This document shows, in pieces, positions 1-24,188 of a DNA stretch of 64,000 bases. How positions within the stretch are numbered: position 1 is the stretch's first letter; every line of letters begins with the position of its first letter. Made by a program: the position numbers and the translations under genes. The notes under the pieces are model-generated. The model saw only the letters and a program-made list of their open reading frames with translations. It did not search any database and was not told the origin of the DNA. This DNA is from Cyanidioschyzon merolae (lineage: Eukaryota): assembly GCA_000091205.1 (NCBI GenBank), contig AP006500.2. The stretch is one strand, 5' to 3'.

Positions 1-639
1 GCAGTTGTCAATTTGGGAGAATTCCGTCTATGGTCTTGTAGCGGGGTTCCCGTGCCGAGCAGGTCGAGGTCATGGCCAGCCATCAGCTCCGAAAGGTGGT
101 GAATCAGAGCCGTGAGCTCCTCACTACGTGTCTCCAACTGAGCGAGCTGAGCTCGCAGCTCATTCACGCGCGAGGGTCTGGCTCGCGGCCAAGCTCGTGC
201 CTCGCAAGCCGCTCGTATACGTTGTTTCGTCTGAAGCACCTCGTTCAGTTCCTTGACGAGCTCAGCGTGCCGATCCACAAGCAACTTTCGCGCGTCATCG
301 TCGAGAGAACTGATACGCTCGTGTTCGCTCATATGGGAAACGGACGGCAAGATTTCGCGCACGTCGTCGCCGGTGTCTCGAAAGCGGTGCCCCTGCGCAC
401 TTCACAGGGATTCTCGCACCCTGTATCGACTTGAGTAAATAACACAAACGTTCATGAACACCTGATCACGCTATGGTATGCAGATGCTCGTCCCAGGCCG
501 CCCGCTTACGGAACAGAGGCGTCGTCTGCCCGCGCAGCACAGAAGCGCAACGGACGACCCGAAGCCTGTGTCTTGCCCCAACGCCGGCCAAGAACTGCGT
601 ATGCACGCCTAAACGTCCGCTGTGAACACTGTGCAAACG

Positions 640-657
640 CACACACACACACACACA
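640..657. repeat. (CA)9 dinucleotide microsatellite
   Basis: Direct read: acacacacacacacacaca in an intergenic stretch. Confidence 0.9.
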
Positions 658-1791
658 ATCGCTCGCTCGGTAGAGCAGAGACGTATCCCAGAGCGGCTCC
701 GAACAAAACAGGCAGGTAGTTCGCAGTCTCCTGCGTACCGAGTCGCGCGAGGGCAGCAGTGCCTTGCACGTGCGCGCTGTACTGAACATGCTGTCTCAAA
801 AAGAGCGCTTCGCTTTCGTGCGCTTTGGCAACGAGTGGATGCCAACCTTTGGTAAGACCTTTCGTTGGTGCATAGCTGAGGAATGATGCGTGCTTGTGCT
901 GTTATCAGCACTAAAGATTTGTCCTGTTTATGGACACGTCTGTTGACGTCGTGACGCGGACGGTCGTCTGTGAAGCGCGACGAATGCAGTAACGTGCACC
1001 GGAAATGAACCAGAGGTGATGCACCACTGGTAAATGAGTCAACACTGGTTCAGTAGGCTTGCTGAAAGAGGAATGAAGAGGACAACGTGCAGAGCGTGCT
1101 GCTGAAGCGTCGCATGGCTTACCGTGCAGAGTATCAGCACGCGCACTGCGGTACCAGTGGCACGCATGATTCGCGAAGCGTTCTGGAGTGCAGGAAACTT
1201 CGCTGTGGACTAAAGAACAACCAGGTCATGAATGCTGACGTACGCGTGCACCCTCAGACGTATTCTCAAGCAATCACTGCGGAGGAGGCGCGATAAAACA
1301 AAAGAAGCAAGTCTCGGTTATCGTCCTCCAGCTGCACTCGACAGAAACGCATCTGAAAGGTGCGCTTCGGCGTCGTCGGGTGTACGCTCCGGTGCGTCTA
1401 GCGCCCGTCCAGGCGGCCAGTGTAGAGTCGATGCCTGCGAGCACACGGCAATACGGTTGCATGCGTCAGCGTTATATCATGAAATGTAGACACTGGCGTG
1501 TCTCTGGGTGACAACTGCAGCGGTGGTGCATTGAGCGTCGCGGCTGACACCCACAGGGTAACTGGATAGGCGAGTCTCCTTCTAGTAGCGTACGTGCGCA
1601 TCTTGGTAGTGCTTGAAATCGTGCACGGACGTGCACTGGTGCTTCGACGAGAAAGCACCTCGCCAGAGATGGCGAATCAGAAAATGCTACCGCTGCCACC
1701 GCCGGAGACCAATTGTGCTTTTCTGCTTCGCCTGTTCAAGGGCACGTGCCTTGTCTGCAAGCTGTATGGTCAGGTATATCGAATCATGGAT

Positions 1792-1810
1792 CACCACCAC
1801 CACCACCACC

Positions 1811-1843
<33 letters not shown>
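1792..1843. repeat. (CAC)~11(CAT)~6 compound trinucleotide microsatellite (would encode poly-His in one frame)
   Basis: Direct read. The paralogous tract at 14069-14132 is longer. Confidence 0.9.
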
Positions 1844-2172
1844 GTTCACCAATGGCCCAGGAAAATCATGCCCGGCATACGCATAGGCGGGATGGTAGCA
1901 TTGCTGAATCGCCGACTCGTGCCATACCGGTGCCTTGCTCCAGGCGAGCGTTCAACGCACGCTCTCTTGCTCAATCATACTTTTTCGTCGCAAGTCTTCG
2001 GCATTTAAACACAGTGCCCACACGGAGCACGAATCGATTCGCTTTAAACTTCGCTCGATACACATAGCCGATAGACGCCCCCCAGGCACGAGACTTTTCC
2101 GGGTGTTGATCGAGACGTTCATGGCTCGGAGCGGAGCCTGCGCCCGCACACATGACTTGCGATGGAATCACA

Positions 2173-3109
2173 CCAAAGTGAGCCTGCCAGCTTCAATTGC
2201 CTCGCAATTTGACGTCCGAGGTCCGCTCGCAGTATCCCATGTCGGACATTCCAAAGTGAGCCTGCCAGCTTCATTTGCCTCGCAATATGACGTCCGAGGT
2301 CCGCTCGCAGTATCCCATGACGGACATTCCAAAGTGAGCCTGCCAGCTTCATTTGCCTCGCAATATGACGTCCGAGGTCCGCTCGCAGTATCCCATGTCG
2401 GACATTCCAAAGTGAGCCTGCCAGCTTCTATTGCCTCGCAATACGACGTCCGAGGTCCGCTCGCAGTATCCCATGACGGACATTCCAAAGTGAGCCTGCC
2501 AGCTTCATTTGCCTCGCAATATGACGTCCGAGGTCCGCTCGCAGTATCCCATGACGGACATTCCAAAGTGAGCCTGCCAGCTTCATTTGCCTCGCAATAT
2601 GACGTCCGAGGTCCGCTCGCAGTATCCCATGTCGGACATTCCAAAGTGAGCCTGCCAGCTTCTATTGCCTCGCAATACGACGTCCGAGGTCCGCTCGCAG
2701 TATCCCATGACGGACATTCCAAAGTGAGCCTGCCAGCTTCATTTGCCTCGCAATATGACGTCCGAGGTCCGCTCGCAGTATCCCATGACGGACATTCCAA
2801 AGTGAGCCTGCCAGCTTCATTTGCCTCGCAATATGACGTCCGAGGTCCGCTCGCAGTATCCCATGACGGACATTCCAAAGTGAGCCTGCCAGCTTCTATT
2901 GCCTCGCAATATGACGTCCGAGGTCCGCTCGCAGTATCCCATGTCGGACATTCCAAAGTGAGCCCGCCAGCTTCAATTGCTACGCAATACGACGTCCGAG
3001 GTCCGCTCGCAGTATCCCATGTCGGACATTCCAAAGTGAGCCCGCCAGCTTCTATTGCCTCGCAATACGACGTCCGAGGTCCGCTCGCAATATCCCATGT
3101 CGGACATTC
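2173..3109. repeat. 78-bp tandem repeat array, 12 units, with a 3-unit (234 bp) higher-order pattern in units 2-7
   Basis: Period counted directly (ccaaagtgagcctgccagcttcatttgcctcgcaatatgacgtccgaggtccgctcgcagtatcccatgacggacattc = 78 nt). 937 bp = 12.0 units. Variant positions (tcatttgcc/tctattgcc, caatatgac/caatacgac, atgacgg/atgtcgg) recur in a 3-unit cycle. Three frames are open across the array (ORFs 1935..3140 +, 2168..3184 -, 2119..2352 -), which argues for a stop-free repeat rather than a confident CDS. Confidence 0.9.
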
Positions 3110-5623
3110 GGCCCTGTTTCCCAAGTGGCGCTCAACGTAGACGCAGCACGAGCATCCGCACTCGAGCTCCGTCTGCGTCGCCATCTAGTCCTCCACAGGA
3201 AACGTGCAACATCGATTCCTGCACTCGCTGTACGCACAGGAGTCCAGCGTTTGCGTGCCACAGCACATCCAGCGCCACAGGCTTCCAGCAATCGACGCGA
3301 CCTGTTGGGTACTCCCTTTTCCAACTGGTCCAGGAGCTTTGCGAGTGCGCGCCCCTCGCCTCCGTCCAACCGAGTCCGTTGGTGGCCCCCCAGCGCCGTC
3401 TCACGGAATCCTGCCAAAGGCTGTGCGCATGCGCAGGTCAGACGCTCGTGCGCGCTCTGAGTTAAAAGTGGAAACCCATCCCACGCTGCTCGACACACTG
3501 CTCAGCGCGTTCACTTTCAGGTCCTGACGCAGTCATTCCGCCTCGTACTTCGCCGTATGCCATCCAAGGTGATGCGCGGCTCCCGATCATACCAAGTGCT
3601 GGACGCGCTGGGCAGCTCCGTCTGCTTGCCATTCAGGTCTTGGGCGGCGCCGTCCGCCTCATTTGCATACACGGGGACGACAAGGGCGCTCTTCAACCTC
3701 GGATCCACGCTCCCAACAGCGACTTTCTCCTCGTCTGCCTTGAACAGTTGAAAATGAGCCTCGTTGGTGACCCAGGTCACGCTTTCACGACGCCCATGCG
3801 TACTGGAGATCCGTCGGTATCCAAAGCCTCGCTACGCGCTGCACGCCATGCCTTCCATGGAGACTAGAAACATCTGAAGAAGCGCCGCCGACGCTTTTCG
3901 TGGACCTGTTCGAGTCCGTCATACTTGCGCGGAGACACCGGATCCTTCTTCGAATACTCCGGTACCTGGCGGAGCAGCACGGACAGCGACGCTTCACTCC
4001 GTATCCGTCTCTTCTTCGGGATCCAGATGCACTGGGTGGACGACGAGCGCCAAGCTCTCCCATACTCTGCTTGTATGCACGCTATCCTCTGTGATGCTTT
4101 TCGTGACCTCATGGGTCACGAGCACGCCCACGGAGTGCAGCGTGCGTTTCCGTTCGCTCCCGCGCACGACCAGGGCGCAGCAGCACAGCAGCTCTCGACC
4201 CCTGCATAGAAGAGAGTAAAGTCGTGGATTCGTCACAGAACGTTGTCTCGGAGGCGAACGACGCATCGACGGATCCGTGAGTGTCCACATGACCTTGGCG
4301 AGCAGACAAGTCGCCCTCGACTGGATGGAGTCGACGAGACCCAGCCCACACTAGGAGCCGTCCACGGCCGTGCGCAGCAGCGTGCGCCTTGGTCGCTTTT
4401 CAGTGGTGATTCGCGACGTCGTAGATTAACAGGACGGTAGAGTACCTGAAGAAGAAGAAGAAGGAGACACAGCAGAAGCCAAGGAGAGTTTCGTCGACTC
4501 GTGAGGCAACAAACGAGCAGGGCTTTCTCGCGAGCTGCAGACCATCACACCAAAACCCTCTCTGCTGCTAACGCCAACACCGTTCTCACTACGGCTGGTC
4601 TCCTGTTTATGACCAGAAGCTTGCCGCAATTTGAGCTCCCATATACACGCCAAGCATCGCTTCCAAATAAAGCCCCATCGACTTCGATGGACACCAGTCC
4701 GCCCTGTGATGAGCATTCGCATTGCCGTTCGGAATCGAACGCGTGGTACTCCACTCGCGACAGTCTCCCAGACAGGCGTGCTTGCTTTTCGTCATCCATC
4801 CGCGTCTTTTCGTCCCAGTTCGTATCGACAGCACAGAAACATCACGCCGTTTGGATTTCTCTCGGTAGGACGTCTCAGGGCACGCAAGCTTAGAAAGCGA
4901 CTGACGAGGCGACACTCGGGTAGAAAGTGCCGGAAAATTTCCGTTTTCGCTCGACAACGTTCATGATATCGGTGAGGATTCGGTTGGTTCACCCATGTGC
5001 TGACCGTGGAATGACTGACTTGTACATGTATGAGCTTTTCTTGCGAGCTCGTCCTGGCAGCATCAAGTCTCTCTGCGCCCGTTCTCCAATATCCAGCATA
5101 CACTCCGTCGGATGAAGACCTGCGACATCGATAAACGAAAACACCAGCGTGCTTGCTGGTACAAGGCACCCATGAATTCATGAATCTAAGTCTCTGAGTA
5201 TAACAATGCACAGGCGTACATATAAACATGAACGTGCCAAAGATCCGCGATGAGCGTCTAATCGGGAGGTTGCGTACGAGACGCACACCGCCCCGCCGAC
5301 GGCTGCTGCACCAGCAAGCTGGGTAGAAGGTCTTGACATGATTCAGGCGTGTTGCTGGTGCATCTGGCATTCGCCTCGAGGCCAAGTCTCCGTCGTAAAC
5401 GCGCGTAGATTTACAACCAACCCTGTCAACTCAAACGTGCGTGACCTGTATCGGAATCGTGTCCAACCTGGTATCATGCGTTTCTGCCCGCTCGCTCAAC
5501 GAGTCTCAGCAGCGCTTGAGAAGCCAGGTTGCATCGCGCAGCCATATGACCTGCAATCAAGTAACACGCTACGTTTCCCGAATGGTCATCATCAGGGCAA
5601 TGGATGCAGTGCCTGTCTCGTAT

Positions 5624-7237
5624 CTAGTTGGGCACGAGCAGCTTTCGTTCAACAAGCGAGCGGGGCCGCCGCTTATGCTCCAAACGCATCTCGTTTTCTG
5701 GTGCAAGTCCGATGCAAGCTCTGAGAATGTTTTCGATGCAGAGGCGCTGACGTGCTAGCGCATTCACCACAGGAGTGCCCTCTGGCACAACGGGTGCCTT
5801 GAGGAAATAGCTCAGTAGCGACAACACGGGATGGAAACGCTCAAATTTTTCCTCATCGGCTCTCTTCATCTCAATACGCTCTGCAAGCTCTGCGAGAATG
5901 GTCAGGTCGAGGATAAGTGGCGCCGCTAGAAGCGAGTCCTCACAGGTCTGGTGAACGACAATGGTGTTCCGTCCGCCCATGAAGATTTCGCTTTCGTACT
6001 CGTCGAGCGCACGTTTGCTATCGCCAACCGCCGGCACATACTTGATGACAACTAAATGGTCCGGACTCTCACCGGGCCTGTAGAGAACCCCGTTACTGGC
6101 AACCATGTCATCCACAACGCTTGACTTGGATATTTCCTTGCTACGAAACTGGCTCGGTGCCGATAAATTCTTTCCATCATTATTACCGAGATGATTATAG
6201 GAGGCTATCGAGAGGGGTTTGATACCGGCACCGATCAGAAAATCAGCGAGAACTGATTTCAGCTTTGTTTGACCCGATTTGAAATCATCGCCACCAATAA
6301 AGACGTCACGTTGCACAGCGAGGTCGATAACCCCGGGCACAAACGTGTTCTGCGGAGAACCGTTAATAAACGAGCAGCCTTCCAGAATTGATGCTGTGGC
6401 AAATAGCGCGCTCGGCGATATCTCCGAGTGACTCGCAGCAATTGCGTGCAGAAGATTCTCCGCGGTATCGTTCACCCCCTCCATGACAGTAGCGTAGCGT
6501 TCCGTGTTGGCCGTCCACAGCACGATGACCTTTTCCACGTTCCTCTCGGCTTTGAAAGCGCGAATATCTGCGCGGATTTTCTCCAAATGTTCCCACTTGT
6601 TGGTGCCCGGGATCAGATTGTCGGCACGTGACGCCTGGTTCGCCGCAATGAAATCCCCATACAGCACCGATGGTAAAGGTTTCAAAGGGGCCATGTACGG
6701 CTCGAGCTGCAGCTGCAGATCGTAGTCAAGTACTTGCGCGCGACGCATCGCTTCTGCGAGGTTCGCACTGGAGATATCCCAGCCACCAATCTCCAGGTCG
6801 TTGGGATTCACCATCGGCAATAGGGCGCGCAAAGGCACAAATACGTCCTCCTCAAATCGCCCGTCGCTTTCGTAAAGACTACCCAGCCGAACGGTGGCGG
6901 ACTGTGTTAGAGAGCCGAAATAGTTCGGAGTCTGAATGCCGTGCTTCGTACGCCAGGTGATGCCCTCGCGGTTCGCAATGACTGCACCAGTGACGGTACT
7001 GCCGTTGTTGCCACCCCAGCCCACCAGCATAAGACCCACCCTCGGTACACGACGCTGCGTGCGGAAAGTATACTTGACCGATAAAGGCCGCACAATCGCA
7101 CGACCACTGTTTCGCTCCAAACGCACGGCATTCGTTTCGTAGTCGACGTCCGCTTCTATGTAGTCGGGCGTGTACCGCACGTTCGGCGCTTGAACGTAAA
7201 CCTCTTCTGCGAGCATTTTCTGCAAGTTCCTAACCAC
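5624..7237 (-). CDS. INO1: myo-inositol-3-phosphate synthase (inositol-1-phosphate synthase), 537 aa, intact single ORF
   Basis: Translation carries hallmark MIPS motifs from established family knowledge: GWGGNNGST near the N-terminus, [10 protein letters not shown], and the NAD-binding region. Length matches eukaryotic MIPS. Confidence 0.95.
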
Positions 7238-9541
7238 CAGTTAGAGTCAAGCGATGAAATGAAGCGACGTTTTCCCACACAAACCGCGCACCTCTGCAAA
7301 CGTGTCCGCACAGTGCACTGTGCACGTCGAGCGTACAATCCCGCTTTTACGACACAAAGCGTCGATGTAAGGTATTGCCCTGCAGAGGGCGCCCCGCGTT
7401 CGTGATTGGATGGCGCGCAGCACGACACGCGACGGTGCATGTGTTCGAATTCGCTATCGCGAAGCCCGCCGGTGCACAACGTGGCGGTAGACAGCGCATC
7501 GACGGCATCGCCGCGTTCCATGCGCGCATTCAATTGCGCACGCGGGTTGCTGGCGATGCGCGCTATGGATGGCGATTGACGGCAGGTCGCACAGCTGCAC
7601 GTGTCGCCGCCTGGCGCGGCGGCGCTGCAGGGATCGTGCAGCGCACCGGCGGCTGCTCCAATCGGGGGCGGAACGTTGGTCGTCGCCTGTATGTCCGTTT
7701 TGTTGCCTTTCATCCACATTGCGTTCCAGTGTCCAGGTGCATGTCACCAAGTGCTCTTCCACAGCTCAGAGCAGGTGCGTTTTAAGTGCGTTGATTGGAG
7801 GTAATAAAAGATGCAAGGAAAAGTTATGGATGTGCAAGTCAGGGACACTTGAGGGCCGCCATTGTCGGGTGCTGGTAGAAACGATAAAATCCTCTTCTCG
7901 CCGAACATCGAGCGAAAAGGATCAAGTCATGGAGAAGTAGAAGAGCGCAGATTGACGAGAAAAGGTGTTTCGCCGACGGGACGCTGAGGAGACTCTAGTG
8001 GCACAGAGGGCACGAGTCTGAGGAATTCTAGCAATAGTGGGTTAAAGTAGAGGCACGAAATGCATGGAGTTCGTGAACCGGGACCTGGCGCCGCCATTAT
8101 TGTCAGAAGATGTGTGGTGCTGAAGACGAGGCCCGCGGAGCTGACGCGATCCAACTTTGTGCGGTGTCCTGCAGGCCTCGGAGTTTGCAGGAAGAAAATG
8201 AAAACGATAGCATAGCGGTGGTCAAAATGGCAGGGAGACTTCTCTGAGTAGGTATATACATACTCTCCATGGCCGAAGAACGTTTCTCCTTTGTTTGGTC
8301 TCATACAGGTCTCGTGGAGCAGCGTGCTGGAGGCCGATCGCTTGTATCCGCAGGCACGCCAAATAGGGGCATCTTCCGCGCCTGCTATGGATCAGAATGA
8401 TGTTGCCGATAGATGCTATGCCAGACACTGAGGCGAGTGAGCATCTAGTTCCCAGAGGTTTTCATAAAGAATGCGTGATGCGCCTGAAAAACGACGAGCA
8501 CGCACTTCGAGCGGCGATTCTATCGTTTGCGAATGCTCCCGAACCGTTCCACTGAATTCTTCCGATCGCGACAAGGTGTGCAATGGACTCGTCAAGCATC
8601 CCTCGCATCTAATGGTATTTCTCGATAACAGGGTAGACACGAAAATTCCTTCGTGGATGGCATCGATCGCTGATGCACCTGGTCGAATCGATGCCTTCCC
8701 CCCGGACACGGATGCACCATTGCTGAACCTGTCTTTTTTCATCACAGTTCGATGTACGATGTCGAGATGTGCGCAGCGCTACCTTGCCCACTAATATGCT
8801 AAAATCTATATTGCGCATCCCACATCGCTGATCGATCCAGTGATGTATAGAAAGCTCGCTAAATGAAAGGTGCTCGAGACGTTGTCGCGCATGCACTGTA
8901 TGCCGCACCGTGCACCATTCTATAGCGGCATCAGTGCTTCATTACCTTCCGGGTGAAGGATCCAGCGAATCGGATGCACTTACGAGCGCAGCGTGTCTTT
9001 CGCACCTGCGCACTGGTGAGTGCCAAGCAAACGCCCGCGCCGCGAACCGACACCGCATCCCATGCACGACCGCGAAGAGGAGCGACACTGCTCTCAGCAT
9101 TCATCCTAACAGCCGAGTTCCTCTAACGTGTCTTGCAGCGAAGGCAAGTCAGCATCCGCAGGCTGACTGATCACAAGTAGACATCGAGACCTGAACCTGT
9201 GTCGGGTGAAGCACGCCTCGAGCCTACGCCCTCTGTGGTACGACAACACCGGTGCTATATGCGCAATCGCGGACGCAAGATAGAACGTATGAATCGACCA
9301 GTGTATCCGAGAGGAAGTATGGGTAATGGAACTTGGAAGTAGGTCATGGAGCAATATATGCTTCACCGCGCAACGCGATAATCGGCGTACAGTGGGCGAA
9401 CGCTGGCCTGTGTAAGCGTTTCGCAAATGAACAGAAATCAGTGCTTCGTGATCGGCAGCGGCGGCGCTGGCAACGCCATACAGCGTAACCTCGAACGGCA
9501 GCGGTGCGCACTGCAGCGCGGCACGCTCCTACCGGATATCT

Positions 9542-12352
9542 TTGGCTCGCGGCGTCTTCTATCCAACAGGGATCGAAGAAGCTGGTTGGCTCTCCCTGCT
9601 TGCTATTAGGGTTCCGGAAATGGAAGAAAGACGCAGTGACGTCTTTGATCCCCTGCCGGATCGTAGTCACGCGGCGATCTCGTGGCGAACAGCGGAACCG
9701 CAGACGCCGTCGCCACCGCTGCCAACGGACTTTCCGCGGCCGGTGTCTGCACCGCCCGACTTGGAAGTCCCCGAGCCTTTGCTGCTCGCGTCGTCGGGGA
9801 TCCAACCGAACTGGTTCTCAATCGTGGATATTCGTGCTGATATGGACTATGAATCGTTCTATGATGCTTTTAAGGCGCAAACGAAACTGCCTCCGCCGTT
9901 GGACTCGAGCGTCTTGCGCGGCGACTTTCGAACGGTGCAGCGAGTCCGAAGTCAAAACGAGCGGAGAGAGCACGTATCCATGGACGCTGCGCTGGAACAG
10001 GCGGGTCACGCGTTGGCTGGTCTAGGGGGTACTGGGGGAGCCTCGCTAACGCCGCACTCGTTGGCAGCGTCAAACCGCGGTTATGGCGAGGCGATGCGGT
10101 TCACAGATCCGCACGGGGGGCTCTTAACCATGGAACAAGTTGCGGTCTCGAGCCACGCGGCTCTGGGCAAAGGGCCTGCGTCGCCGGATCAGATGTTATT
10201 CCCCGGAAGCCGAGCCTCACAGATGATGGCAGGGAGCGGCGCGCCTGCAGAGGTATTGCGGCCGGTTGCGAACGCTGGCGCGCTCTTGCGACGCGACGAC
10301 AGTGACGCCTCCGTGGAGAACTTAATTTTCCGTGAAACGCTCAAATACGCCCGACAACTGGACAGGGAGAGTTCGGAAAGCGATCTGAGCACGACCGCGG
10401 AGCGGCGGATAACCGGCTCTGCGACCCAGACAACGAACGCTGCTATATATCATGAGGCGGATCGGCGACTCTGGCAAGCACCGCTCGTCGCTACCACGGT
10501 GCTTTACTCGTCCACGAAGCCGCATCCTGACACTAACGACAATGCGCTCGCACAGAAGGCTGTAGGCTTGGCGGGCACTCAGGATACGGACGGCACAAAA
10601 AATCACGCCGCAGCAACAGCAGCTGCTGCGAGCGCTCCCTCTCATATTTCCGACAACAGCGCAGGTGCAGGTCGTATCCCAAGTGGTGGTACCGGCTGTG
10701 AAGCCGGCGAACGATACGAGGAGCGCAGCTCGCCCCGATCGCGGAACGAACTCGCTGCTGGCATCCAGCGGGGCGTACCGTCGCGTTCGCAGACTCCATC
10801 GATGGCTGCTATTGCAGCCGTGAGTCCGCCCGTTGCCACGATCACCCCGGGGAGTTGTGCAGCAACCTCCGTCGTGCCGCGCATCCCAGTGACGACCTCC
10901 ACGATGGGCGCTCAAGTGGCTCAGACATCCACCCTGATGCCAGCCTGGACAGAAGCTGTTGCGCCAGTCCAGAGTATGGAGAATAGTGGCGCCTTTGACA
11001 TTCGGGATATTCGCGCTCCGCTACCGCACCCGGGTGCCGAGCATCTGCCGAAAAAACCATGGAGCACACGCGGGCGTCCCCGTCGAGCTCCGCGAAACAC
11101 AGCCCGTAGCAGCATTTATCTGGGGCAACATCAAGCGATGCCGTCTCAAGAGCTGCCTGTTGGACTCGATGCTGCGGCTTCTGGTCACCAACCGCATCAT
11201 CCTGAGCTTGTCTCGTTCAAGAGTGCTGCTCTTGCGGCATCCATTCCGACAAACACAGCGCCTGACGGGGCCTTGAGTGACGCGTCTGCCCCGCTCTCTT
11301 GCTTTGCTGGGCGTATGGCGCTGATGGCTCGGGATCAACAGGGAGGCCGCTACCTCCAGGCGCGTCTCGATGTCAAGAATGCTGCAGACACGGCGCTTAT
11401 TTTCGAGGAGTGTCGACCGCATTTCGTGGAGCTTGCGATGGATCCTTTTGGGAACTATCTATGTCAGAAACTCTTCGAGCACTGCAACCGCGAGCAACGG
11501 CTAGAGCTCATTCGACAGAGTGCATCGCAGCTGGCTCAGGTTTGTATGGACCCGCATGGAACTCGCGTTGTGCAGAAAATGATCGAGCTTACCGTTGAAC
11601 CTGAGCACGCCGCACTCATCGCCCAGGCCATCTCGCCGCACTGCCTATCGCTGATGTGTGACGTGAATGGAAATCACGTCATTCAGCGATGCTTACAGAG
11701 AATGGATGTCCCGTTGAGACGCTTTATCTACGACACCGCCCTCACGCGTTATCTGGAAATCGCGAGGCATCGACACGGCTGCTGTGTACTGCAGCGTTGC
11801 CTCGATCACGCGACGGCGGAACAGCGCAGCAACCTCTGCGCCCTGATTCTGAACAGTGCCTATGAACTGATGCAAGACCCGTTCGGCAACTACGTCGTAC
11901 AGTACGTGTTAGAGCTCAAGGAGCCGTCGTATACGAGGGCAATCATTCAACGCATTCGTGGCCACCTTTGGCAGCTTTCCATGCAAAAGTTTAGCTCGAA
12001 CGTGGTAGAGAAAGTCTTCACGATGGCGAACGAGCGAGACCTGCGATCACTGCTTCACGAGCTTTTAGAAGGCCCACAGTCGGTCGAGAGCATGCCGCTA
12101 CAGGTCGGCTCCGAGCAGCACCAACGAAATATACGACCCCTGCTTTTCGATCCGTATGCAAACTACGTCGTTCAGCGGGCGCTTTCGCTGGCGCCCTCAC
12201 CCGTGTTTGAAGCGTTGCGGGAAGCGATTCAACCGCACCTGGCGGAGCTGCGCGGCACACCCTTCGGGAAACGTATTCAAGCTCGCCTCTCACGGACGCC
12301 TTTGCGGACCGGTTCAGCGGTGACGTCCGCGAACGGCTCCAAACGACTCTAG
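9542..12352 (+). CDS. Pumilio/PUF-family RNA-binding protein, 936 aa, with a C-terminal array of about 8 Puf repeats and a long low-complexity N-terminal region
   Basis: C-terminal half contains successive Puf-repeat signatures: FGNYLCQKLFEHC, DPHGTRVVQKMIE, DVNGNHVIQRCLQ, HRHGCCVLQRCLDHA, DPFGNYVVQYVLE, QKFSSNVVEKVF, DPYANYVVQRAL. The true start may be an internal Met (e.g. MEERRSD...). Confidence 0.9.
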   Translation: MARGVFYPTGIEEAGWLSLLAIRVPEMEERRSDVFDPLPDRSHAAISWRTAEPQTPSPPLPTDFPRPVSAPPDLEVPEPLLLASSGIQPNWFSIVDIRADMDYESFYDAFKAQTKLPPPLDSSVLRGDFRTVQRVRSQNERREHVSMDAALEQAGHALAGLGGTGGASLTPHSLAASNRGYGEAMRFTDPHGGLLTMEQVAVSSHAALGKGPASPDQMLFPGSRASQMMAGSGAPAEVLRPVANAGALLRRDDSDASVENLIFRETLKYARQLDRESSESDLSTTAERRITGSATQTTNAAIYHEADRRLWQAPLVATTVLYSSTKPHPDTNDNALAQKAVGLAGTQDTDGTKNHAAATAAAASAPSHISDNSAGAGRIPSGGTGCEAGERYEERSSPRSRNELAAGIQRGVPSRSQTPSMAAIAAVSPPVATITPGSCAATSVVPRIPVTTSTMGAQVAQTSTLMPAWTEAVAPVQSMENSGAFDIRDIRAPLPHPGAEHLPKKPWSTRGRPRRAPRNTARSSIYLGQHQAMPSQELPVGLDAAASGHQPHHPELVSFKSAALAASIPTNTAPDGALSDASAPLSCFAGRMALMARDQQGGRYLQARLDVKNAADTALIFEECRPHFVELAMDPFGNYLCQKLFEHCNREQRLELIRQSASQLAQVCMDPHGTRVVQKMIELTVEPEHAALIAQAISPHCLSLMCDVNGNHVIQRCLQRMDVPLRRFIYDTALTRYLEIARHRHGCCVLQRCLDHATAEQRSNLCALILNSAYELMQDPFGNYVVQYVLELKEPSYTRAIIQRIRGHLWQLSMQKFSSNVVEKVFTMANERDLRSLLHELLEGPQSVESMPLQVGSEQHQRNIRPLLFDPYANYVVQRALSLAPSPVFEALREAIQPHLAELRGTPFGKRIQARLSRTPLRTGSAVTSANGSKRL

Positions 12353-12639
12353 CAAGCACATAAAAGCAGCTTGCAGCGCTGTCGTGCGGACGCTGGACAT
12401 GGCGCAGCAGCGTCACTTGGGAGTTCTGGACGTGCTTCGGAGACAGTTGACCGCGGCAGTGCCGGTTTCCAAGAACAGAGGGCGAAACCCCGGGACTTGG
12501 GTCGTTTCCGACGCCTTGCTGTTGTTCTTGTTCTTGTTGTTGTTGTTGCTGCTGCTAGATCCATGTCGGAATAGAATAGAACCGGTCCGCTTTGTTCACA
12601 CGGGCATACACGCTGGAATTTGAGCATGTTCTCATGTTC

Positions 12640-13950
12640 ATGAATATGAGGTTTTACGAGCCTCTTATGCGACTGCGTCGCTCTCGCCTCTCGTGTCCTT
12701 GTCTTTGAATACGCGTATCTGTCCTTGACCTCCAGCTCTGTTGCCGGCAGTCGAAAGATCATGACAGCAGCGGTAAAGACTGGGTGACGTCGTTTCCAGC
12801 CGTCGTCGACGCATGTCATGCAAAGGCGCAAGTTGCGATCTACGCTTCGCTCGCTACCGTTAAATTCTTCGCTTTCAGCCTCTGTATGCCCGTCGTAGCA
12901 GTGAAACTCTGCTATGGGTCAGGTGTTCTCATATGAATGCCACGCGTCGTCGGTCTCCTTCAAGGGTCGCCCCCTTGCACGTGAACGCCTGCTTCAGCGC
13001 TCGGCACATGCGCGTGACGCGTGCGCGTGTATGTCCTCGATGCCTCTCTCCGTTTTCGAGCTCGTTGCAGCACCCTGTGATCACTGGCTTCCTCTAGTCG
13101 AATTAAGCAGCGAGTGTTCTGTTTGCTGGGTGGGGAAGCGTATGCCGCTCAATTCTACCAGGGATTTGTGAACAGCGTCGCGTTCCGCAAAGAAACAAAT
13201 ACCAGAAGAAAAATTCTTGCTCGAGAACATGTCGAAAAATCTTGATCTGTTTGCGATTGCTGCGTGCAAAAACGGCGACGCTCTCTCTTTTGAAACCGAT
13301 TGCTCGGATGACTTGAGTCCGAGTCCAAGGGCCTTTACCATGCAAGCAGAAGGGACCGGAGCCGCTGGGAGCAAAGCCGTGACCGGCATCATGCTAATAT
13401 GGAATGCGGTTTCTTTGGTGGCGGGAGGGAGTGGCGGCTTTGCTTTTCGAACGGAATCGATTCTTTGACGTGACAAGTTCCGTAAACTTTCGACATGAGC
13501 TTGAGAAAAAGTCGTCTAGAGACGACGTCGAGTATCTTCTTCGCTTTCTTTCCCGCGGCGCAACTTGCTGGGCCAATGAATTGCCTCGACGTCGAGAAAT
13601 CGAAAACTTGAAAACGCATGCTTTGAGCATACTAAACGGAATGAAAAGGGAATAGGATAGGCTTGTAAGGATGACCGGATGATGATATTGGTTACTTTAC
13701 GAACCATGGTTCCATTGCGTCGCGAATCACCTCGATAACGATGACATGATGAATTCTGGATGCCAAGATTCCGAAGCTTTACTCGGAAGCACAACCAAGA
13801 ATCCAGAAACGATATATGAATCCAAACGGCGTTATTTCTCCAGATTGAACCACATGGCTGCACAAAACTGCGAAAAAAATAGATATACGGGAACAATGCG
13901 TGTACTTTCGTGTTCCATTCATTTCTGATACGGGTGTAGAGGTATGCAGC
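12640..13950 (+). repeat. Dispersed intergenic repeat family, copy D (~1.3 kb, diverged)
   Basis: Nucleotide blocks shared with the other copies: gttgccggcagtcgaaagatcatg ~ gttgccagcagtcgaaggatgtttatgg (20560) ~ ccgtagtcgaaggatgttggtgg (55040); ctgcttcagcgctcggcacatgcgcg ~ gctgcatcgctcgatacatg; gatgacttgagtccgagtccaagg ~ gaggtgactcgaatccgagtccaagc; tttcgacatgagcttgagaaaaagtcg ~ ttttcgtcatgagcttctgaaacagtcg. The conserved blocks fall in different reading frames between copies, so conservation is at DNA level. Confidence 0.7.
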
Positions 13951-14068
13951 CTCGGAGACGCTCGACACGTATGCATATCGTCAAGCGTCGTGCGTGGGCA
14001 CTTACATTGAAAAGAATCTCCGTTGCTTCTGCATGTCAATGTACGGTCAGGTATGTCGAATCATGGAT

Positions 14069-14084
14069 CACCACCACCACCACC

Positions 14085-14132
<48 letters not shown>
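14069..14132. repeat. (CAC)~11(CAT)~10 compound microsatellite, longer allele of the tract at 1792-1843
   Basis: Direct read. Confidence 0.9.
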
Positions 14133-14461
14133 GTTCACCAATGGCCCAGGAAAATCATGCCCGGCATACGCATAGGCGGGATGGTAGCATTGCTGAATCG
14201 CCGACTCGTGCCATACCGGTGCCTTGCTCCAGGCGAGCGTTCAACGCACGCTCTCTTGCTCAATCATACTTTTTCGTCGCAAGTCTTCGGCATTTAAACA
14301 CAGTGCCCACACGGAGCACGAATCGATTCGCTTTAAACTTCGCTCGATACATATAGCCGATAGACGCCCCCCAGGCACGAGACTTTTCCGGGTGTTGATC
14401 GAGACGTTCATGGCTCGGAGCGGAGCCTGCGCCCGCACACATGAATTGCGATGGAATCACA

Positions 14462-15008
14462 CCAAAGTGAGCCTGCCAGCTTCATTTGCCTCGCAATATG
14501 ACGTCCGAGGTCCGCTCGCAGTATCCCATGACGGACATTCCAAAGTGAGCCTGCCAGCTTCATTTGCCTCGCAATATGACGTCCGAGGTCCGCTCGCAGT
14601 ATCCCATGACGGACATTCCAAAGTGAGCCTGCCAGCTTCATTTGCCTCGCAATATGACGTCCGAGGTCCGCTCGCAGTATCCCATGACGGACATTCCAAA
14701 GTGAGCCTGCCAGCTTCATTTGCCTCGCAATATGACGTCCGAGGTCCGCTCGCAGTATCCCATGACGGACATTCCAAAGTGAGCCTGCCAGCTTCATTTG
14801 CCTCGCAATATGACGTCCGAGGTCCGCTCGCAGTATCCCATGTCGGACATTCCAAAGTGAGCCTGCCAGCTTCAATTGCTACGCAATACGACGTCCGAGG
14901 TCCGCTCGCAGTATCCCATGTCGGACATTCCAAAGTAAGCCTGCCAGCTTCTATTGCCTCGCAATTTGACGTCCGAGGTCCGCTCGCAGTATCCCATGTC
15001 GGACATTC
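14462..15008. repeat. 78-bp tandem repeat array, 7 units (5 identical units plus 2 variant terminal units)
   Basis: Same 78-nt unit as 2173-3109. 547 bp = 7.0 units. The translated ORF 14224..15039 shows 5 identical 26-aa units followed by the IATQYD...V and IASQFD...V variant units that also terminate array I. Confidence 0.9.
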
Positions 15009-17944
15009 GGCCCTGTTTCCCAAGTGGCGCTCAACGTAGACGCAGCACGAGCATCCGCACTCGAGCTCCGTCTGCGTCGCCATCTAGTCCTCCACAGGAA
15101 ACGTGCAACATCGATTCCTGCACTCGCTGTACGCACAGGAGTCCAGCGTTTGCGTGCCACAGCACATCCAGCGCCACAGGCTTCCAGCAATCGACGCGAC
15201 CTGTTGGGTACTCCCTTTTCCAACTGGTCCAGGAGCTTTGCGAGTGCGCGCCCCTCGCCTCCGTCCAACCGAGTCCGTTGGTGGCCCCCCAGCGCCGTCT
15301 CACGGAATCCTGCCAAAGGCTGTGCGCATGCGCAGGTCAGACGCTCGTGCGCGCTCTGAGTTAAAGGTGGAAACCCATCCCACGCTGCTCGACACACTGC
15401 TCAGCACGTTCACTTTCAGGTCCTGACGAAGTCATTACGACTCGTACTTCGCCGTATGCCATCCAGGGTGATGCGCGGCTCCCGATCATACCAAGTGCTG
15501 GACGCGCTGGGCAGCTCCGTCTGCTTGCCATTCAGGTCTTGGGCGGCGCCGTCCGCCTCATTTGCATACACGGGGACGACAAGGGCGCTCTTCAACCTCG
15601 GATCCACGCTCCCAACAGCGACTTTCTCCTCGTCTGCCTTGAACAGTTGAAAATGAGCCTCGTTGGTGACCCAGGTCACGCTTTCACGACGCCCATGCGT
15701 ACTGGAGATCCGTCGGTATCCAAAGCCTCGCTACGCGCTGCACGCCATGCCTTCCATGGAGACTAGAAACATCTGAAGAAGCGCCGCCGACGCTTTTCGT
15801 GGACCTGTTCGAGTCCGTCATACTTGCGCGGAGACACCGGATCCTTCTTCGAATACTCCGGTACCTGGCGGAGCAGCACGGACAGCGACGCTTCACTCCG
15901 TATCCGTCTCTTCTTCGGGATCCAGATGCACTGGGTGGACGACGAGCGCCAAGCTCTCCCATACTGTACTTGTATGCACGCTATCCTCTGTGATGCTTTT
16001 CGTGACCTCATGGGTCACGAGCACGCCCACAGAGTGCAGCGTGCGTTTCCGTTCGCTCCCGCGCACGACCAGGGCGCAGCAGCACAGCAGCTCTCGACCC
16101 CTGTGCATAGAAGAGAGTAAAGTCGTGGATTCGTCACACAACGTTGTCTCGGAGGCGAACGACGCATCGACGGATCCGTGAGCGTCCACATGACCTTGGC
16201 GAGCAGACAAGTCGCCCTCGACTGGATGGAGTCGACGAGACCCAGCCCACACTAGGAGCCGTCCACGGCCGTGCGCAGCAGCGTGCGCCTTGGTCGCTTT
16301 TCAGTGGTGATTCGCGACGTCGTAGATTAACAGGACGGTAGAGTACCTGAAGAAGAAGAAGAAGAAGGAGACACAGCAGAAGCCAAGGAGAGTTTCATCG
16401 ACTCGTGAGGCAACAAACGAGCCGGGCTTTCTCGCGAGCTGCAGACCATCGCACCAAAACCCTCTCTGCTGCTAACGCCAACACCGTTCTCACTACGGAT
16501 GGTCTCCTGTTTATGACCAGAAGCTTGCCGCAATTTGAGCTCCCATATATACGCCAAGCATCGCTTCCAAAGAAAGCCCCATCGACTTCGATGAACACCA
16601 GTCCGCCCTGTGATGAGCATTCGCATTGCCGTTCGGAATCGAACGCGTGGTACTCCACTCGCGACAGTCTCCCAGACAGGCGTGCTTGCTTTTCGTCATC
16701 CATCCGCGTCTTTTCGTCCCAGTTCGTATCGACAGCACAGAAACATCACGCCGTTTGGATTTCTCTCGGTAGGACGTCTCAGGGCACGCAAGCTTAGAAA
16801 GCGACTGACGAGGCGACACTCGGGTAGAAAGTGCCGGAAAATTTCCGTTTTCGCTCGACAACGTTCATGATATCGGTGAGGATTCGGTTGGTTCACCCAT
16901 GTGCTGACCGTGGAATGACTGACTTGTACATGTATGAGCTTTTCTTGCGAGCTCGTCCTGGCAGCATCAAGTCTCTCTGCGCCCGTTCTCCAATATCCAG
17001 CGTACACTCCGTCGGATGAAGACCTGCGACATCGATAAACGAAAACACCAGCGTGCTTGCTGGTACAAGGCACCCATGAATTCATGAATCTAAGTCTCCG
17101 TAACGACACCAGCTGTGCACAGACATGCAACGACGGGTGCGCAGGGGGAAACCCCGCCTCGCGTAGTGGGCACTGGAAGCTCGCAAGCAGCGCGAGCCCC
17201 ACGTTGCTGTGCTTGTATCGCTTGCGTTGCTCGCAGGTTGTCGTTTATCTTACCAAAGTACGCTGTTTGCACAGCGTGACGCTGATCGCTTATGAGGCAG
17301 CGAGTGCAACATACCACGCACAGGAGAGCAGCGCGTAATGACTCGAAACGACATGATCTCGCGCGTGCGTTGCAAGGGCGTTAAAAACCCGTCGGTCAGC
17401 GCTTTCGAAACAAGGTCTTGGTACTGGCATGCCAGGGTCACTGGTCCTGTGCGCAGCAACCAAGGCATAGCAGTTGCAACTCTACGGGAATGCATCTTTC
17501 GTCTTGAATACCCGAGGATGCTCGCAGCTGGAGAACGTCAGGCATCAGCGCATCGTGTTTCGAGCATGTTTTCCTGGTGCAGAATAGATGCATCGGACGA
17601 AAGGCTTTGTGGAAGCTTATCGTTCTTCGCGTGTCCAGGAAGGACACCTCAACTTCTTGGCAAATACTTTGACGCGTCACACACCTTAAGGCGCCTAGCA
17701 ATACGCCACGCTCCATCGCCTGTGCAATGGCATTCGTGCAGTGACAACGCGCTGAACTGAGAGCGGCGCACCTCCAGGGGCCTGACCTCTCGACGGTTGC
17801 GTCCGAAAAGCGTCCGCTATCAACGTGTGCTGCGATGTCAATGCAGATATCGAGAAGGCTCTGGGCATATCCAAAAAGGAGACGCGCATTTGCTGGTGCT
17901 TTTCATTGTACCTAGTCGATGGAGTCAGAGTGCCCAGTCGCGCT

Positions 17945-19834
17945 CTACGAGAGGAACAGGGATTCGACGGGCTCCCAGTAGCCAGCTTCGCGTTCCCAGG
18001 CGAGCAGACGGTCCACCTCCTCGGCCGATAAGGTTACGCTCTGGTGCGCGCTTTGACGGACACCGGCCACTGTACGTTCGAGCAACTGACGGTAGGTGGC
18101 ACGGTCAGCGAAAAAGTTCACCGGCGGTGGTGCCTGCTGAAATTCCCGGTAGAAATCACGCAACGTGATGAGCGCCATTTCCAGCCACATCTCATCCCGC
18201 TCAACGACGAACAACCGCGCGCCCGCATCAGGTGTCCATGAAATGAAATGGGCTCGCCAGGTATCTGTGCAAAGCATTTGGAGCTGGACCTGGGCAAAAT
18301 GGTTCGCATAGATCAGCCGCTGCGGTGAAACCAAGCGGTAGCGATAGAGCGGACGATCTGTGGCTTCATCCGTTAGTCGCGGGCCGTCAGTCATGTCTCC
18401 TGTTGGGACAAACGGGCAGGGACATTTCACTTCGACGAGTTCGATATCGTGCGACAAGTCGCTCGAAGCAGCCAATGTGTTCGGTTGCGTATCCTGGGTC
18501 CGGGCCTCAGAATGAAGAGGACTGCGCCACCTAAGCAGCGCGTCTGGGCTCGCCGCGATCGTTGGTAACGCTGAAAATTCGTCCAAGTCATAGATGCCTG
18601 CACAGGAGGCCGGCTGCAGCATATGCAGCCCCGCTTCGACAAGCACCAGTTTCGCGAAAGAAGTATTCGTCGCTGTGGACGCCCCGGGAACAAGGCCACG
18701 GTCTGGAGCACCGTCCCCGGGAACAATCGAGTAATAGCAGGATGCTGCATCCGCAGTACGCGCGGATTCGAGGTAGCGCAGCACCGTCAACAGTCCATTC
18801 TGTTCGTGCATTTTCCCCCACTCCATCGAGATCATCGATGCTGGAGAAAAGGTCTCAGCATCGAGTCCCGGCTCGCGCCACTGGCGCCAGGCCTCCAGTG
18901 CAGCTTCACCTCCGCGTCGGAACTGCCATGCCGGCACACACTCCCGCAACCATTCGAGGGTTGCGGGTTCACCGAAACCAAGCGCTTTCCATGCGGACGA
19001 AGCATTCACTCGCATGTGCCGTCGTGCCTCTAGCCACAGCGCCGAGTCCTGTCGGATACGAGTTAGATCCTCTGGACGTTCGATCACGAGCGCCTCAACC
19101 GGGGGCAGCGCCTCGTAGCAGGGATGTCGCCGGAGTTGCTCTCTTGTGATTGCGCAATATGCTAGGTTCGGTTTCGTGCCAGTCGGATCAGGATGGGTCG
19201 TTACTGTGAGCTGGCGCTTCGATGGATGCCCTGGAGCTGGTGCGGACGGCTCGCGGGGCCTCTCATCGTTGACAGATGCCCGTGAGTGTTGTTCGCAATG
19301 ATCCGCAAACCTATCGAGCCGCTCGAGCAGAAGCTGCTTCTGGTTCATGCTGAACTCGAGGTAACGACCTATTGCTGTCCGGTACCGCCAGACAACGGTG
19401 AGAATTTGTTCGGAAAGCACACCTCCGCCGAGTACGGCACTTAGCAAGGCGTCCACCTGGGTTTGGAAGGCCTGGCCGGCGCGCTCGTTCCCCGCATCCA
19501 CAGCTAATCGCTCACATTCGCGACGAACAAGGGTTCGCAGTTTCCGGAAACTCTCCATCACAGGATGCACAGACTGCGGCACGGAAGATTTGATGTATCC
19601 GCCGGATTGTTGGTGGACACACCTGACTGCTCGCCGCTGCAGATAATAGTGGTTCCTACGCGGCTGCGGGAGCGCGGTAACGCAGCGCGATATCTTGTGC
19701 CGTGCAGCAAGACGTCGAGTGCTCGAGCGTTGATGGCACAGGTGCGGCCCAGCCGCGAAACCGCTTGCAGTCTCTAACATCAAGTCACGACCTCGCGGCG
19801 TTTCTCTGATAGAAAACACCTGCGGGTTCAACAC
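17945..19834 (-). CDS. Lambda-exonuclease/YqaJ-family (PD-(D/E)XK) nuclease-domain protein, 629 aa, with an uncharacterised basic/Ser-rich N-terminal ~250 aa
   Basis: C-terminal ~330 aa aligns motif-by-motif with phage lambda Exo/YqaJ from memory: [27 protein letters not shown] ~ [39 protein letters not shown] ~ [24 protein letters not shown]...[13 protein letters not shown] ~ ACSPDGLC...[24 protein letters not shown]...[11 protein letters not shown] ~ YMAQVQYSMWVT...HYVVIERDEKY. Confidence 0.8.
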   Translation of the reverse strand: [629 protein letters not shown]

Positions 19835-20439
19835 AGTCAGAACACGTCCACGGCGCCGCCGGTGTCAATCGCGAGAGCGTAGTTGATTCAAGACGCTTTT
19901 CAGGAGAAAAAAAGCTCACCAAAGTGCTCACGGAGCGTCTGCCGTCACACGCTCGGGTACTCACCAACGAGCGCACGTGTTCTGGTTTGGGAGGTTTCAG
20001 GTGCCCGAGGCAGCAAACACAGGCTCCCTTTGTCCCGTCTCGATGCGCCAGCAACAGTGACGTAGACCAGCGGTCGTCCCTGTTGGACCGATCTTCGTTT
20101 CAAACGATTCGTTTGGAGCACCGTCTCCTCCAAAAGCGCTTCGTATGCGCTTGCCAGCTGCAACGGTAGCGGCAGCGTCGGCCTCGTGTACGCAGGGCAC
20201 GGGACGGCCTTGGTCAAGCAGCTGGGCATGAAATTTGTCTAAACTGGATATACCTGGACTTGGCGGACGCGAGTAGAGGGTTGCGCTTTGGAGGTGGTGC
20301 TCAGTGCGATTCCGTTGGAAGCACGTACCAGTCTCGACGAGCTGGCGTATGGGAGCGTCTCTAGACTGGTATAAGAATGAAATAAAGGAGGCTCATGCAG
20401 GGAACTCGGGCGTATACGAATGAATTCTGGAACTGTTCC

Positions 20440-21600
20440 CACTGTTATTGGCACAAGCCTTTGCGGGCTCTCTCTCATGCTGCTTCCCGATCCTCGTTCT
20501 TGTTTGTCTCCGGATTTTACATACGCCGGCCTTTCTTGTCTCTTCAGGTCCGTTGCCAGCAGTCGAAGGATGTTTATGGCTGCCCCCGAGTCTCGGTTAC
20601 GTCGTTTTGCAGCTCTTACCGACGCATTTGGTGCACAGATGGAAGCTGTGATCTACGATTCGGTAACGATTTGCATCTTTCTTGTATACATCGGTAGCTC
20701 TCGATCCGCGACGTTTACACTTGAGTGTCATCAGGTGCTCCCATACGTCCATCACAAGACTTCGTCCGCTGAGCGCCGCCCTGTGACGCGTGAACGCTCG
20801 CTGCATCGCTCGATACATGCCGTTGACTGGCAAGAAACGAAAAAGCTTCCAACGATCCTGTGCTTCGGTTCCTGGCCCAGTGCTGCACTCGAAGACCAGG
20901 AGCTGTATCTGGGCGATACGCGCGGCGAGTACGCTGTCCGCTGCACTTGCAAGTGCATGCTATTCTAACGAATAGAGGATTTTAGGACCTTGTTGTTGCC
21001 TGTGATGAAACAGGTATCGGAGAGGGAATCGAGGCTCCGGAGTACGTCGAAAAGTATCGAACCGAATATGCTCGCTTCGTGCAAAGCGGAGATGCGCGCT
21101 CCATAGAGACAGATCGCTGTAATGACTCATGTCCATATCCAAGACCATTTCTTATAGAGCTAGGAGAGACGGGAACTCCTGCGCGCATATCCCGTCGAAG
21201 GCATGGTGATGGTGCATTCGCGACCGGCTTCGTCGATGACCTGCAGGAAATGAAGCTTCATCTTTAGACCGGAGACGATTATGCGACGTCGGCAGCTCCA
21301 CGAGGTTTTCGGCATGCGCTTGTAAACAAGTCGTCAAAGCTCGACGTCGACAATTTTTTGCGTCGTCAAGTGTGCGGTGCCAATGGATACGCCTCGAGTT
21401 GCCCGTGAACACAAGGATCCAACACTCGTAGAATGCGTGATTCGATTCTGGTACACGTAAGAAAAGGATTCAAGAACAGTGGCAGCTCGTTTCTATAACT
21501 TCGATGACGATATCGGTTATTTGACGAATCCGAGCTCGGGGATGTCGCGAATCATCCTGATGAAGATGACGTAAAAGCGTCCAGCGGCACAGCGTGAAAG
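20440..21600 (+). repeat. Dispersed intergenic repeat family, copy C (5' portion clear, 3' extent approximate)
   Basis: ggattttacatacgccggcctttcttgtctcttcaggtccgttgccagcagtcgaaggatg aligns with 55000-55050 (ggctttagatacgccggtctctgttttccctccagtttcgttgtccgtagtcgaaggatg). gctgcatcgctcgatacatgccgttgactgg aligns with 55290 gctgcatcgctcgatacatgtgtttgacggg. Weaker matches continue to about 21550 (gacgaatccgagctcgggg ~ gactcgaatccgagtccaag). Confidence 0.6.
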
Positions 21601-23676: not shown

Positions 23677-23968
23677 GATTGCGTTTTCCCACAGTCTGTG
23701 CGGATTTCTTGAAAATCTGCTCTTAATTCTATACAATCCTGCGCCTACCTTGAAGAGAATTCTAATACGAGACCCTCTTTAGGTGCTAGCGCACGTCTAC
23801 CACTACTATACGCGGAGCAAATCCAAACCAACACAGAAGAAGTTTGTCACAACAAACGGAAATGGCGCAATGCACGACGCAGACGCGTATGACTGGCAGG
23901 CGCTGCATCGCGAAAACGTCGCGATGCGTCGCGGCGCAGGCGGAGGCATCATCTGTGCTGGAGCATAA

Positions 23969-24188
23969 TGCGTGGTAAGTTTTATACAGGATTTGACAGG
24001 TACAATGAAGCGGACGTGCGTGATGCGTGACAAGTTTTATACAGGATTCGACAGGTACAATGAAGCGGACGTGCGTGATGCGTGACAAGTTTTATACAGG
24101 ATTTGACAGGTACAATGAAGCGGACGTGCGTGGTAAGTTTTATACAGGATTTGACAGGTACAATGAACCGGACGTGCGTGATGCTCAT
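23969..24188. repeat. 55-bp (48/55-bp variant) minisatellite, 4 units, in the divergent promoter region between the SDR and PPR genes
   Basis: Direct read: tgcgtgatgcgtgacaagttttatacaggatttgacaggtacaatgaagcggacg repeated, with two units lacking the 7-nt 'atgcgtg' insert. Confidence 0.85.

Follow-up and report, generated by a model that had tools for sequence, protein, structure and literature searches.

Two near-identical 3-kb modules that bracket the genes INO1 and PUF on the 1.25-Mb chromosome of Cyanidioschyzon merolae 10D are probably recent copies within a non-coding family of dispersed repeats, here called family A, and not a free-standing segmental duplication. C. merolae is a red alga with a nearly intron-free genome and is known for having almost no mobile DNA. 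We analysed 64,000 nucleotides (nt) of contig AP006500.2 (assembly GCA_000091205.1). This whole stretch is called the window, and its origin was established from the INO1 product, which is identical to the C. merolae 10D protein. We put the probability of the reading as a whole at about 0.7. A first-pass annotation of the same DNA had presented the pair as a stand-alone segmental duplication of unknown sequence. That description was not supported: what was duplicated belongs to a dispersed family, and its ends match those of a third copy in the window.

The two young copies are direct repeats with well-defined limits. They were found concordantly by repeat finding, Tandem Repeats Finder and self-BLAST. 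Self-BLAST and pairwise alignment, together with metagenome contigs (L006 and L010 for copy I, L007 and L008 for copy II), placed copy I at 1766-5194 (3429 nt) and copy II at 14039-17098 (3060 nt), both in the young subfamily of family A. The right edge is sharp (5194 and 17098), and pairwise alignment put the left edge at about 1754-1766 in copy I and 14028-14039 in copy II. The copies have the same orientation, with 9 kb between them and a spacing of 12,273-12,289 nt at the left and 11,904 nt at the right. Outside the tandem arrays described below they are about 99% identical. Self-BLAST aligned 14462-17098 with 2563-5194 at 98.6% over 2637 nt, and 14040-15008 with 1763-2719 at 96.7% over 969 nt. 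The claim of two near-identical segments in the same orientation around INO1-PUF was therefore borne out by the pairwise alignment that had been proposed as a check, with the edges adjusted and the indels mapped, and the pair is well supported as a recent same-orientation duplicate. It reaches the length (1 kb or more) and the identity between loci (90% or more) by which segmental duplications are recognised, although that name describes it only in part.

The differences between copies I and II are few and unevenly spread. There are 19 substitutions, one 2-nt indel and one 3-nt indel in the 2085 nt 3' of the arrays, and 2 differences in the stretch of about 330 nt that separates the microsatellite from the array. 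Difference-free stretches of 358, 500 and 408 nt (p about 0.0007) and an excess of empty 100-nt bins (p 0.003) indicate that the point differences are clustered, which suggests later patchy gene conversion between the copies, or uneven mutation.

A third, diverged copy identifies the duplicated unit as a dispersed element. Sensitive blastn against the rest of the window gave four blocks colinear with the pair (E-values of 2e-28, 6e-27, 3e-13 and 1e-7), and these belong to an old member of family A, copy III, delimited by blastn, MAFFT and nhmmer at 33283-35835 (about 2553 nt, with the start at about 33283 or 33370) in the same orientation as copies I and II. In a three-way MAFFT alignment, identity was 50-64% along the full length of copy III. 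Its similarity to the young pair ceases within a few tens of nt of the ends of that pair, and the sequences beyond the ends of all three copies had no homology in any pairwise comparison (z of 1.9 or less). Because copy III ends where the pair ends and the flanks are unrelated, we regard the duplicated unit as a discrete dispersed repeat element with a core of about 2.5 kb and defined ends, specific to the C. merolae lineage. Judged from these alignments, a chance or compositional match appears very unlikely, and family A appears to be old, given how far copy III has diverged from the pair.

The survey of family A covered this 64-kb window. A profile search with nhmmer found no family A copies beyond the three in the window and the other collected loci, so the search for further copies that the first-pass annotation had proposed genome-wide yielded one more copy at the scale of 64 kb and not of the genome. 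Copies I and III have no exact word of at least 14 nt in common, and for that reason exact-word searches of sequence collections reach the young subfamily and not its diverged relatives. An exact 26-mer from the right end occurred in just two flank contexts, both already known, among 241 million metagenome records, and neither this 26-mer nor the core of the 78-bp unit was found in viral contigs. The young subfamily seems to consist of this pair alone.

The young copies carry a terminal microsatellite and an internal minisatellite, both of which differ in length between the copies. The microsatellite, on the plus strand, is (CAC)11(CAT)6 in copy I (51 nt, 1792-1842) and (CAC)10(CAT)11 in copy II (63 nt, 14069-14131), close to the 52 and 64 nt first reported. 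About 330 nt past it in either copy, an array of 78-bp units begins; Tandem Repeats Finder gave 12.0 units in copy I (2173-3109; unit types B C D E C D E C C F G H) and 7.0 units in copy II (14462-15008; C C C C D K L), with 96-97% matches between units. These are minisatellites, in that units of 10-100 bp are arranged head to tail and their number differs between paralogues. The counts of 12 and 7 units agree with the earlier description, and the three-unit higher-order repeat it had noted in copy I is real, with C-D-E recurring in the unit string. Two other details had to be corrected. In copy II four units are identical and the fifth is 1 nt off, in place of the five identical units described; and the two terminal variant units, said to be the same in both arrays, are similar only, with G and K differing at 1 site and H and L at 5 sites.

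Copy III indicates how the arrays began. It has neither the (CAC)n(CAT)n microsatellite nor an array, and at the array position it has a single 78-nt segment homologous to the unit (33695-33773), bounded by GAATCAC and GGCYCTGTTTC as the arrays of copies I and II are. The local alignment of this segment with the repeat unit scored 18, a value reached by none of 1000 shuffles (mean 7.6, standard deviation 1.3). Because copy III has one unit at this position, we interpret the minisatellite as a secondary tandem amplification of an internal segment of the element. The ancestral array boundary that had been drawn from the shared terminal units is a weaker argument than claimed, because those units are not identical between the copies, and it is copy III that shows the one-unit ancestral state. 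The proposal that slippage and unequal exchange acted independently on the microsatellites and arrays after the duplication was supported. In the metagenome contigs, which are short-read assemblies, the 78-bp arrays are collapsed to 3-4 units.

The duplication probably took place in the C. merolae lineage. Gene order around the locus (adh_short, a 596-aa gene, PUF, INO1 and a 445-aa gene) is conserved in Cyanidiococcus yangmingshanensis (L012, VWRR01000003.1), whose INO1 protein is 88% identical, and in another Cyanidiococcus-like lineage. The two intergenic gaps are 1.6 and 1.3 kb in Cyanidiococcus (L012 4155-5791 and 11587-12866) versus 5.6 and 5.3 kb in C. merolae, and a search confined to family A detected no module at either site. 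Both copies are present in all sampled C. merolae-like contigs or strains, and the divergence between copies I and II (about 0.9%) is similar to that between strains (0.5-1.0%). Taken together, the apparently empty sites in Cyanidiococcus, the presence of both copies in all strains and the similar divergences date the copying to after the two genera separated but before the sampled strains radiated.

We propose that a complete element was either copied into a site 9 kb away or converted that site ectopically, in the interval between the separation from Cyanidiococcus and the divergence of the sampled strains. Replication slippage would then have altered the (CAC)n(CAT)n tract, and unequal exchange would have altered the minisatellite, giving 12 versus 7 units, the C-D-E higher-order repeat of copy I and the homogenised run of C units in copy II. 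Point mutations would build up meanwhile, and patchy gene conversion between the copies would continue. The copying route could be either a DNA-level dispersed duplication of the whole element or the conversion of an older resident copy. Comparisons for extended flank homology and hairpins at the ends gave nothing beyond chance. A scan of window positions 1-20000, which include copies I and II, found no inverted repeat pairs of at least 100 nt, short terminal inverted repeats lying outside the reach of that scan. On the far side of the microsatellite, 26-38 nt are still common to copies I and II.

No gene was found in the module. The first-pass annotation had come to the same view, and it is supported by the lack of homologues, domains or a selection signal. 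Its statement that all open reading frames (ORFs) are shorter than 200 aa was wrong: the array of copy I is traversed by a plus-strand ORF of 401 aa and a minus-strand ORF of 338 aa, and that of copy II by ORFs of 271 and 208 aa. Such long ORFs exist only because stop codons are missing from about half of the unit's frames (in the consensus unit, three of six are stop-free), and many open frames on both strands of the module are expected at 55-58% G+C. Every variant between units alters an amino acid in both long ORF frames. Among 40 single-nucleotide variants from paralogues and strains, 18-35% were synonymous in every frame, which is about the random expectation. A tblastx comparison of copies I and III gave matches in all frames and on both strands about equally, copy III has no ORF corresponding to those of the arrays, and Rfam and tRNA scans were empty.

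Database searches with the ORFs gave the same picture. A minus-strand ORF at 4795-5194 matched its own cluster alone among 5.8 billion proteins, and that cluster consists of automatic calls on these contigs. Ten candidate ORFs were looked up in a protein collection that includes NCBI; nine were absent, and the one that was present, a 192-aa ORF of that same cluster on the minus strand across the right edge of copy I, has no NCBI entry and comes from JGI/Logan automatic calls only. Pfam, applied to the ten longest ORFs, gave nothing for eight and an insignificant score for a ninth (14.7 bits versus a cut-off of 27), and no remnant of a reverse transcriptase or transposase. The plus-strand array ORFs 1935-3140 and 14224-15039 scored 43.3 and 33.5 bits against Tobravirus_2B (cut-off 22.5). 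We rejected this domain as score inflation driven by the repeats, as the score was 17.5, 33.5 and 43.3 bits for 3, 7 and 12 units, with none for 1. The case illustrates that tandem repeats can yield false domain calls and that weak protein similarities arise easily.

The two-copy layout is present in independent assemblies. We used contigs from JGI hot-spring metagenomes that are 99.0-99.5% identical to the window. A 21-kb contig, Ga0078972_1008651 (L009 and L007), begins within copy I, spans INO1, PUF and copy II, reaches window position 20494 and crosses three junctions (copy I to INO1, the PUF side to copy II, and copy II to the right flank). L001 and L011 hold both inner junctions, L001 reaching about 130-230 nt into each module; L006 and L010 extend from INO1 across copy I and on into the left-hand flank and so cover both copy I junctions; and L008 holds the right junction of copy II. 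Four more contigs (L002-L005) contain PUF and INO1, extend 127 nt into the right end of copy I and stop 106-496 nt before copy II. All four module junctions were thus seen independently of the reference assembly. The first-pass annotation had named an assembly artefact as the finding that could overturn it, and the layout in the metagenome contigs indicates that the pair is real. Each contig found has the parental arrangement, with no product of deletion or duplication of INO1-PUF, as seen in short-read contigs that break in the repeat.

Variants that distinguish the paralogues in 10D occur in mosaic combinations in four of the contigs (L006, L007, L009 and L010, compared with 3110-5194 and 15009-17098), and three of these (L006, L007 and L010) have 3-9 extra bases at 3388 that are without counterpart in 10D. 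The mosaics could reflect either gene conversion or repeat collapse, in which assemblers route both copies through one unitig.

We weighed four other explanations of the pair. That the reference contains a mis-joined or artificially duplicated copy has a negligible probability. Apart from the general hazard of assembling repeats, nothing speaks for it, and it conflicts with the 19 substitutions, 2 indels and the array and microsatellite lengths that separate the copies, with the four junctions in independent contigs and the 21-kb contig that links both copies, and with the 10D reference itself, which the genome report describes as finished from telomere to telomere (PMC1955436). It is highly improbable that the module is a duplicated lineage-specific gene, encoding either a protein with poly-His and 26-residue repeats or a long non-coding RNA. 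The candidate ORFs in this case would be one of 339 aa on the plus strand from the ATG at 2121 and one of 338 aa on the minus strand (2168-3184). Long ORFs do cross both arrays, the unit length is a multiple of 3, and dispersed elements are transcribed according to the genome report (PMC1955436). However, 3 of 6 frames are open in the consensus unit and every between-unit variant is non-synonymous in both long frames; there is no homologue, the Pfam score grows with the number of units and is gone for a single unit, and nine of ten candidate ORFs are absent from the protein collection, the remaining one being just an automatic JGI/Logan call. Nor was there an excess of synonymous changes, a corresponding ORF in copy III or an Rfam match.

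The other two explanations accept the pair as a copied non-coding sequence. A plain low-copy segmental duplication, that is, the one-off copying of an arbitrary 3-kb intergenic stretch that belongs to no repeat family, would account for there being just two copies, direct and 9 kb apart at about 99% identity, for the two flank contexts in the metagenomes and for the lack of transposon hallmarks. We consider it improbable, since a third colinear copy lies 16 kb further along with the same ends and unrelated flanks, and an arbitrary stretch would not share its limits with an older dispersed element. Somewhat less improbable, although still unlikely, is a non-autonomous mobile element that was active recently; it might be an SVA-like retroposon mobilised in trans by the few C. 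merolae retrotransposons that lack long terminal repeats (non-LTR elements), with copy I or II as a fresh insertion. Its discrete form, defined ends and dispersed copies would suit such an element, both sites are empty in Cyanidiococcus, and on the minus strand one end reads (ATG)n(GTG)n, like the tails of some non-LTR elements, of which the genome has 26, three with an intact reverse transcriptase, according to the genome report (PMC1955436). On the other hand, target-site duplications do not exceed chance, and copies I and II lack poly(A) and long terminal inverted repeats; both still share 26-38 nt past the microsatellite; the right-end 26-mer revealed no more young copies in the metagenome collection; and neither a reverse transcriptase nor a transposase remnant was detected. 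We prefer the interpretation of the pair as recently copied members of family A, an element that we take to be intergenic filler without demonstrable function.

Family A may correspond to a repeat already described in this genome. The genome report lists an interspersed repetitive element with 253 copies, averaging 3.2 kb and present on all chromosomes, that makes up about 5% of the genome; every copy is said to contain a truncated ORF with weak similarity to WSV486 of white spot syndrome virus (WSSV) (BLASTX E-values of 1e-5 to 4e-2), and the element is transcriptionally active (PMC1955436). A later paper calls these WSV repeats and places about half of all repeat elements under H3K27me3 (PMC5405695). 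We lean towards identifying family A with this 253-copy element on the basis of size and behaviour.

Several observations weigh against parts of our interpretation. For the copying mechanism, the longest words shared at the ends are 5-7 nt and within the chance distribution for target-site duplications, and the copy ends as read have no inverted termini, no poly(A) and no terminal repeats; conversion of a whole element between copies only 55% identical is unlikely. The mosaic variants, which might have been taken as evidence of concerted evolution, were set aside as a possible artefact of short-read assembly. For the identity with the WSV486-related element, the ORFs of the module match no protein except their own cluster, and three family A copies in 64 kb compare with roughly one expected from 253 copies in 16.5 Mb. 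There is also a second family in the window, family B, so the published element could be another family.

Family B consists of intergenic repeats of about 1.6 kb that are likewise diverged. Its five copies in the window (12403-14019, 20300-21938, 46087-47799 and 54702-56463 on the plus strand and 29245-30761 on the minus strand) have pairwise identities of 57-62% and E-values down to 1e-70, and one of them lies directly to the left of module copy II. A sixth copy, inverted, lies about 1.4 kb to the left of the window (L006 8107-8336 and L010 9908-10096). In tblastx, family B gave matches in all frames and on both strands, with no clear coding signal. Between them, the two families occupy about 25% of the window, exclusively in intergenic DNA, which is far above the value of about 5.7% published for repeats genome-wide.

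One contig suggests a rearrangement at family B. L008 (Ga0080006_1268512) matches window positions 16886-21758 at 99.4%, and its colinearity with the window ends exactly at the right end of the B copy at 20300-21938. Past this breakpoint (L008 1-8337) it contains a 573-aa ORF, a WD40 gene and an M50 peptidase gene, which in Cyanidiococcus (L012) are on the side of INO1 that corresponds to the left of the window. The contig fits an inversion of about 22 kb between inverted B copies, enclosing the modules, INO1 and PUF; it could equally be chimeric. Look-ups of the neighbouring 629-aa gene, made to count both arrangements at repeat B, found nothing on record.

The two genes bracketed by the modules are outside the repeat element itself. 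INO1 encodes a 530-aa myo-inositol-1-phosphate synthase on the minus strand (5624-7216; an exact match to BAM82318.1 / XP_005538354.1, with Pfam PF07994 and PF01658), and the PUF/Pumilio-family gene is on the plus strand (9620-12352; 910 aa counted from the first ATG, with Pfam PF00806 on the called product). Two further repeats were observed in the window. Part of the divergent intergenic region between INO1 and PUF (7705-8287) has a 71%-identical paralogue in L008 (5699-6291; 594 nt, E 1.5e-98), beside the 573-aa ORF, and may be either a further, third family of repeats or a small gene missed in annotation. At 23968-24184, to the right of an adh_short-like ORF (22819-23736), there is an intergenic tandem repeat with 4.1 copies of a 55-bp unit and 90% matches.

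The pair could affect the stability of the locus. C. merolae is reported to recombine homologous sequences very efficiently and to lose markers placed between direct repeats by pop-out (review PMC13062707). Given this efficiency, the suggestion that the pair is a substrate for non-allelic homologous recombination is plausible, with no product seen in the contigs. In a recombination-proficient organism, a 3-kb direct repeat could delete or amplify INO1-PUF, and it may hinder or aid gene targeting at the locus. The intergenic regions here, in a genome regarded as the simplest among eukaryotes, are packed with old dispersed repeats, one family of which has a young near-identical pair. A broader reading, in which the pair is a sign of still-active copying by an uncharacterised class of non-coding element that leaves no target-site duplications, and in which intergenic DNA consists largely of ancient repeats, is speculative, and we regard the two parts jointly as rather unlikely. 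If it were true, repeats would drive structural variation, including the possible 22-kb inversion over this locus, and the published repeat content of C. merolae would be an underestimate. The value of these results is mainly for annotation, and little as discovery: the family has probably been reported for this genome already. What is new is the young neighbouring pair, the birth of the 78-bp minisatellite, of which the locus is a clean small example starting from a single-copy segment of a dispersed element, and the terminal microsatellite.

The module is similar to the published WSV486-related element in being in the same organism, dispersed and intergenic, with a size of 2.55-3.43 kb versus a mean of 3.2 kb and no intact gene. 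In contrast, the 78-bp minisatellite, the (CAC)n(CAT)n tract and near-identical pairs are unmentioned in the portions of the two papers covered by term searches (PMC1955436, PMC5405695). The pair also resembles low-copy repeats, as it is more than 3 kb long, about 99% identical and direct, with 9 kb and two genes between its members and a patchy distribution of differences. It departs from them in that its unit is a member of an older dispersed family and not an arbitrary segment, and in that no recombination product appears in the contigs.

Hominid SVA elements are composite, non-autonomous retroposons that have a simple repeat at one terminus and, internally, a tandem repeat whose number of units varies. 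The module has a comparable arrangement, with a non-coding body of about 2-3 kb, a simple tract at one end and an array whose unit number varies between copies. Unlike SVA, it has no poly(A), no target-site duplications and no evidence of retrotransposition, and there are just two young copies. Its internal array has a parallel in minisatellites and satellites that arise in dispersed elements when an internal segment is amplified in tandem. Although the arrays here are short (0.5-0.9 kb) and confined to two loci, with no genome-wide satellite seen, the progression from 1 unit in the old copy to 7 and 12 in the young ones, together with the higher-order and homogenised runs, which are typical of unequal exchange, is shared with that class.

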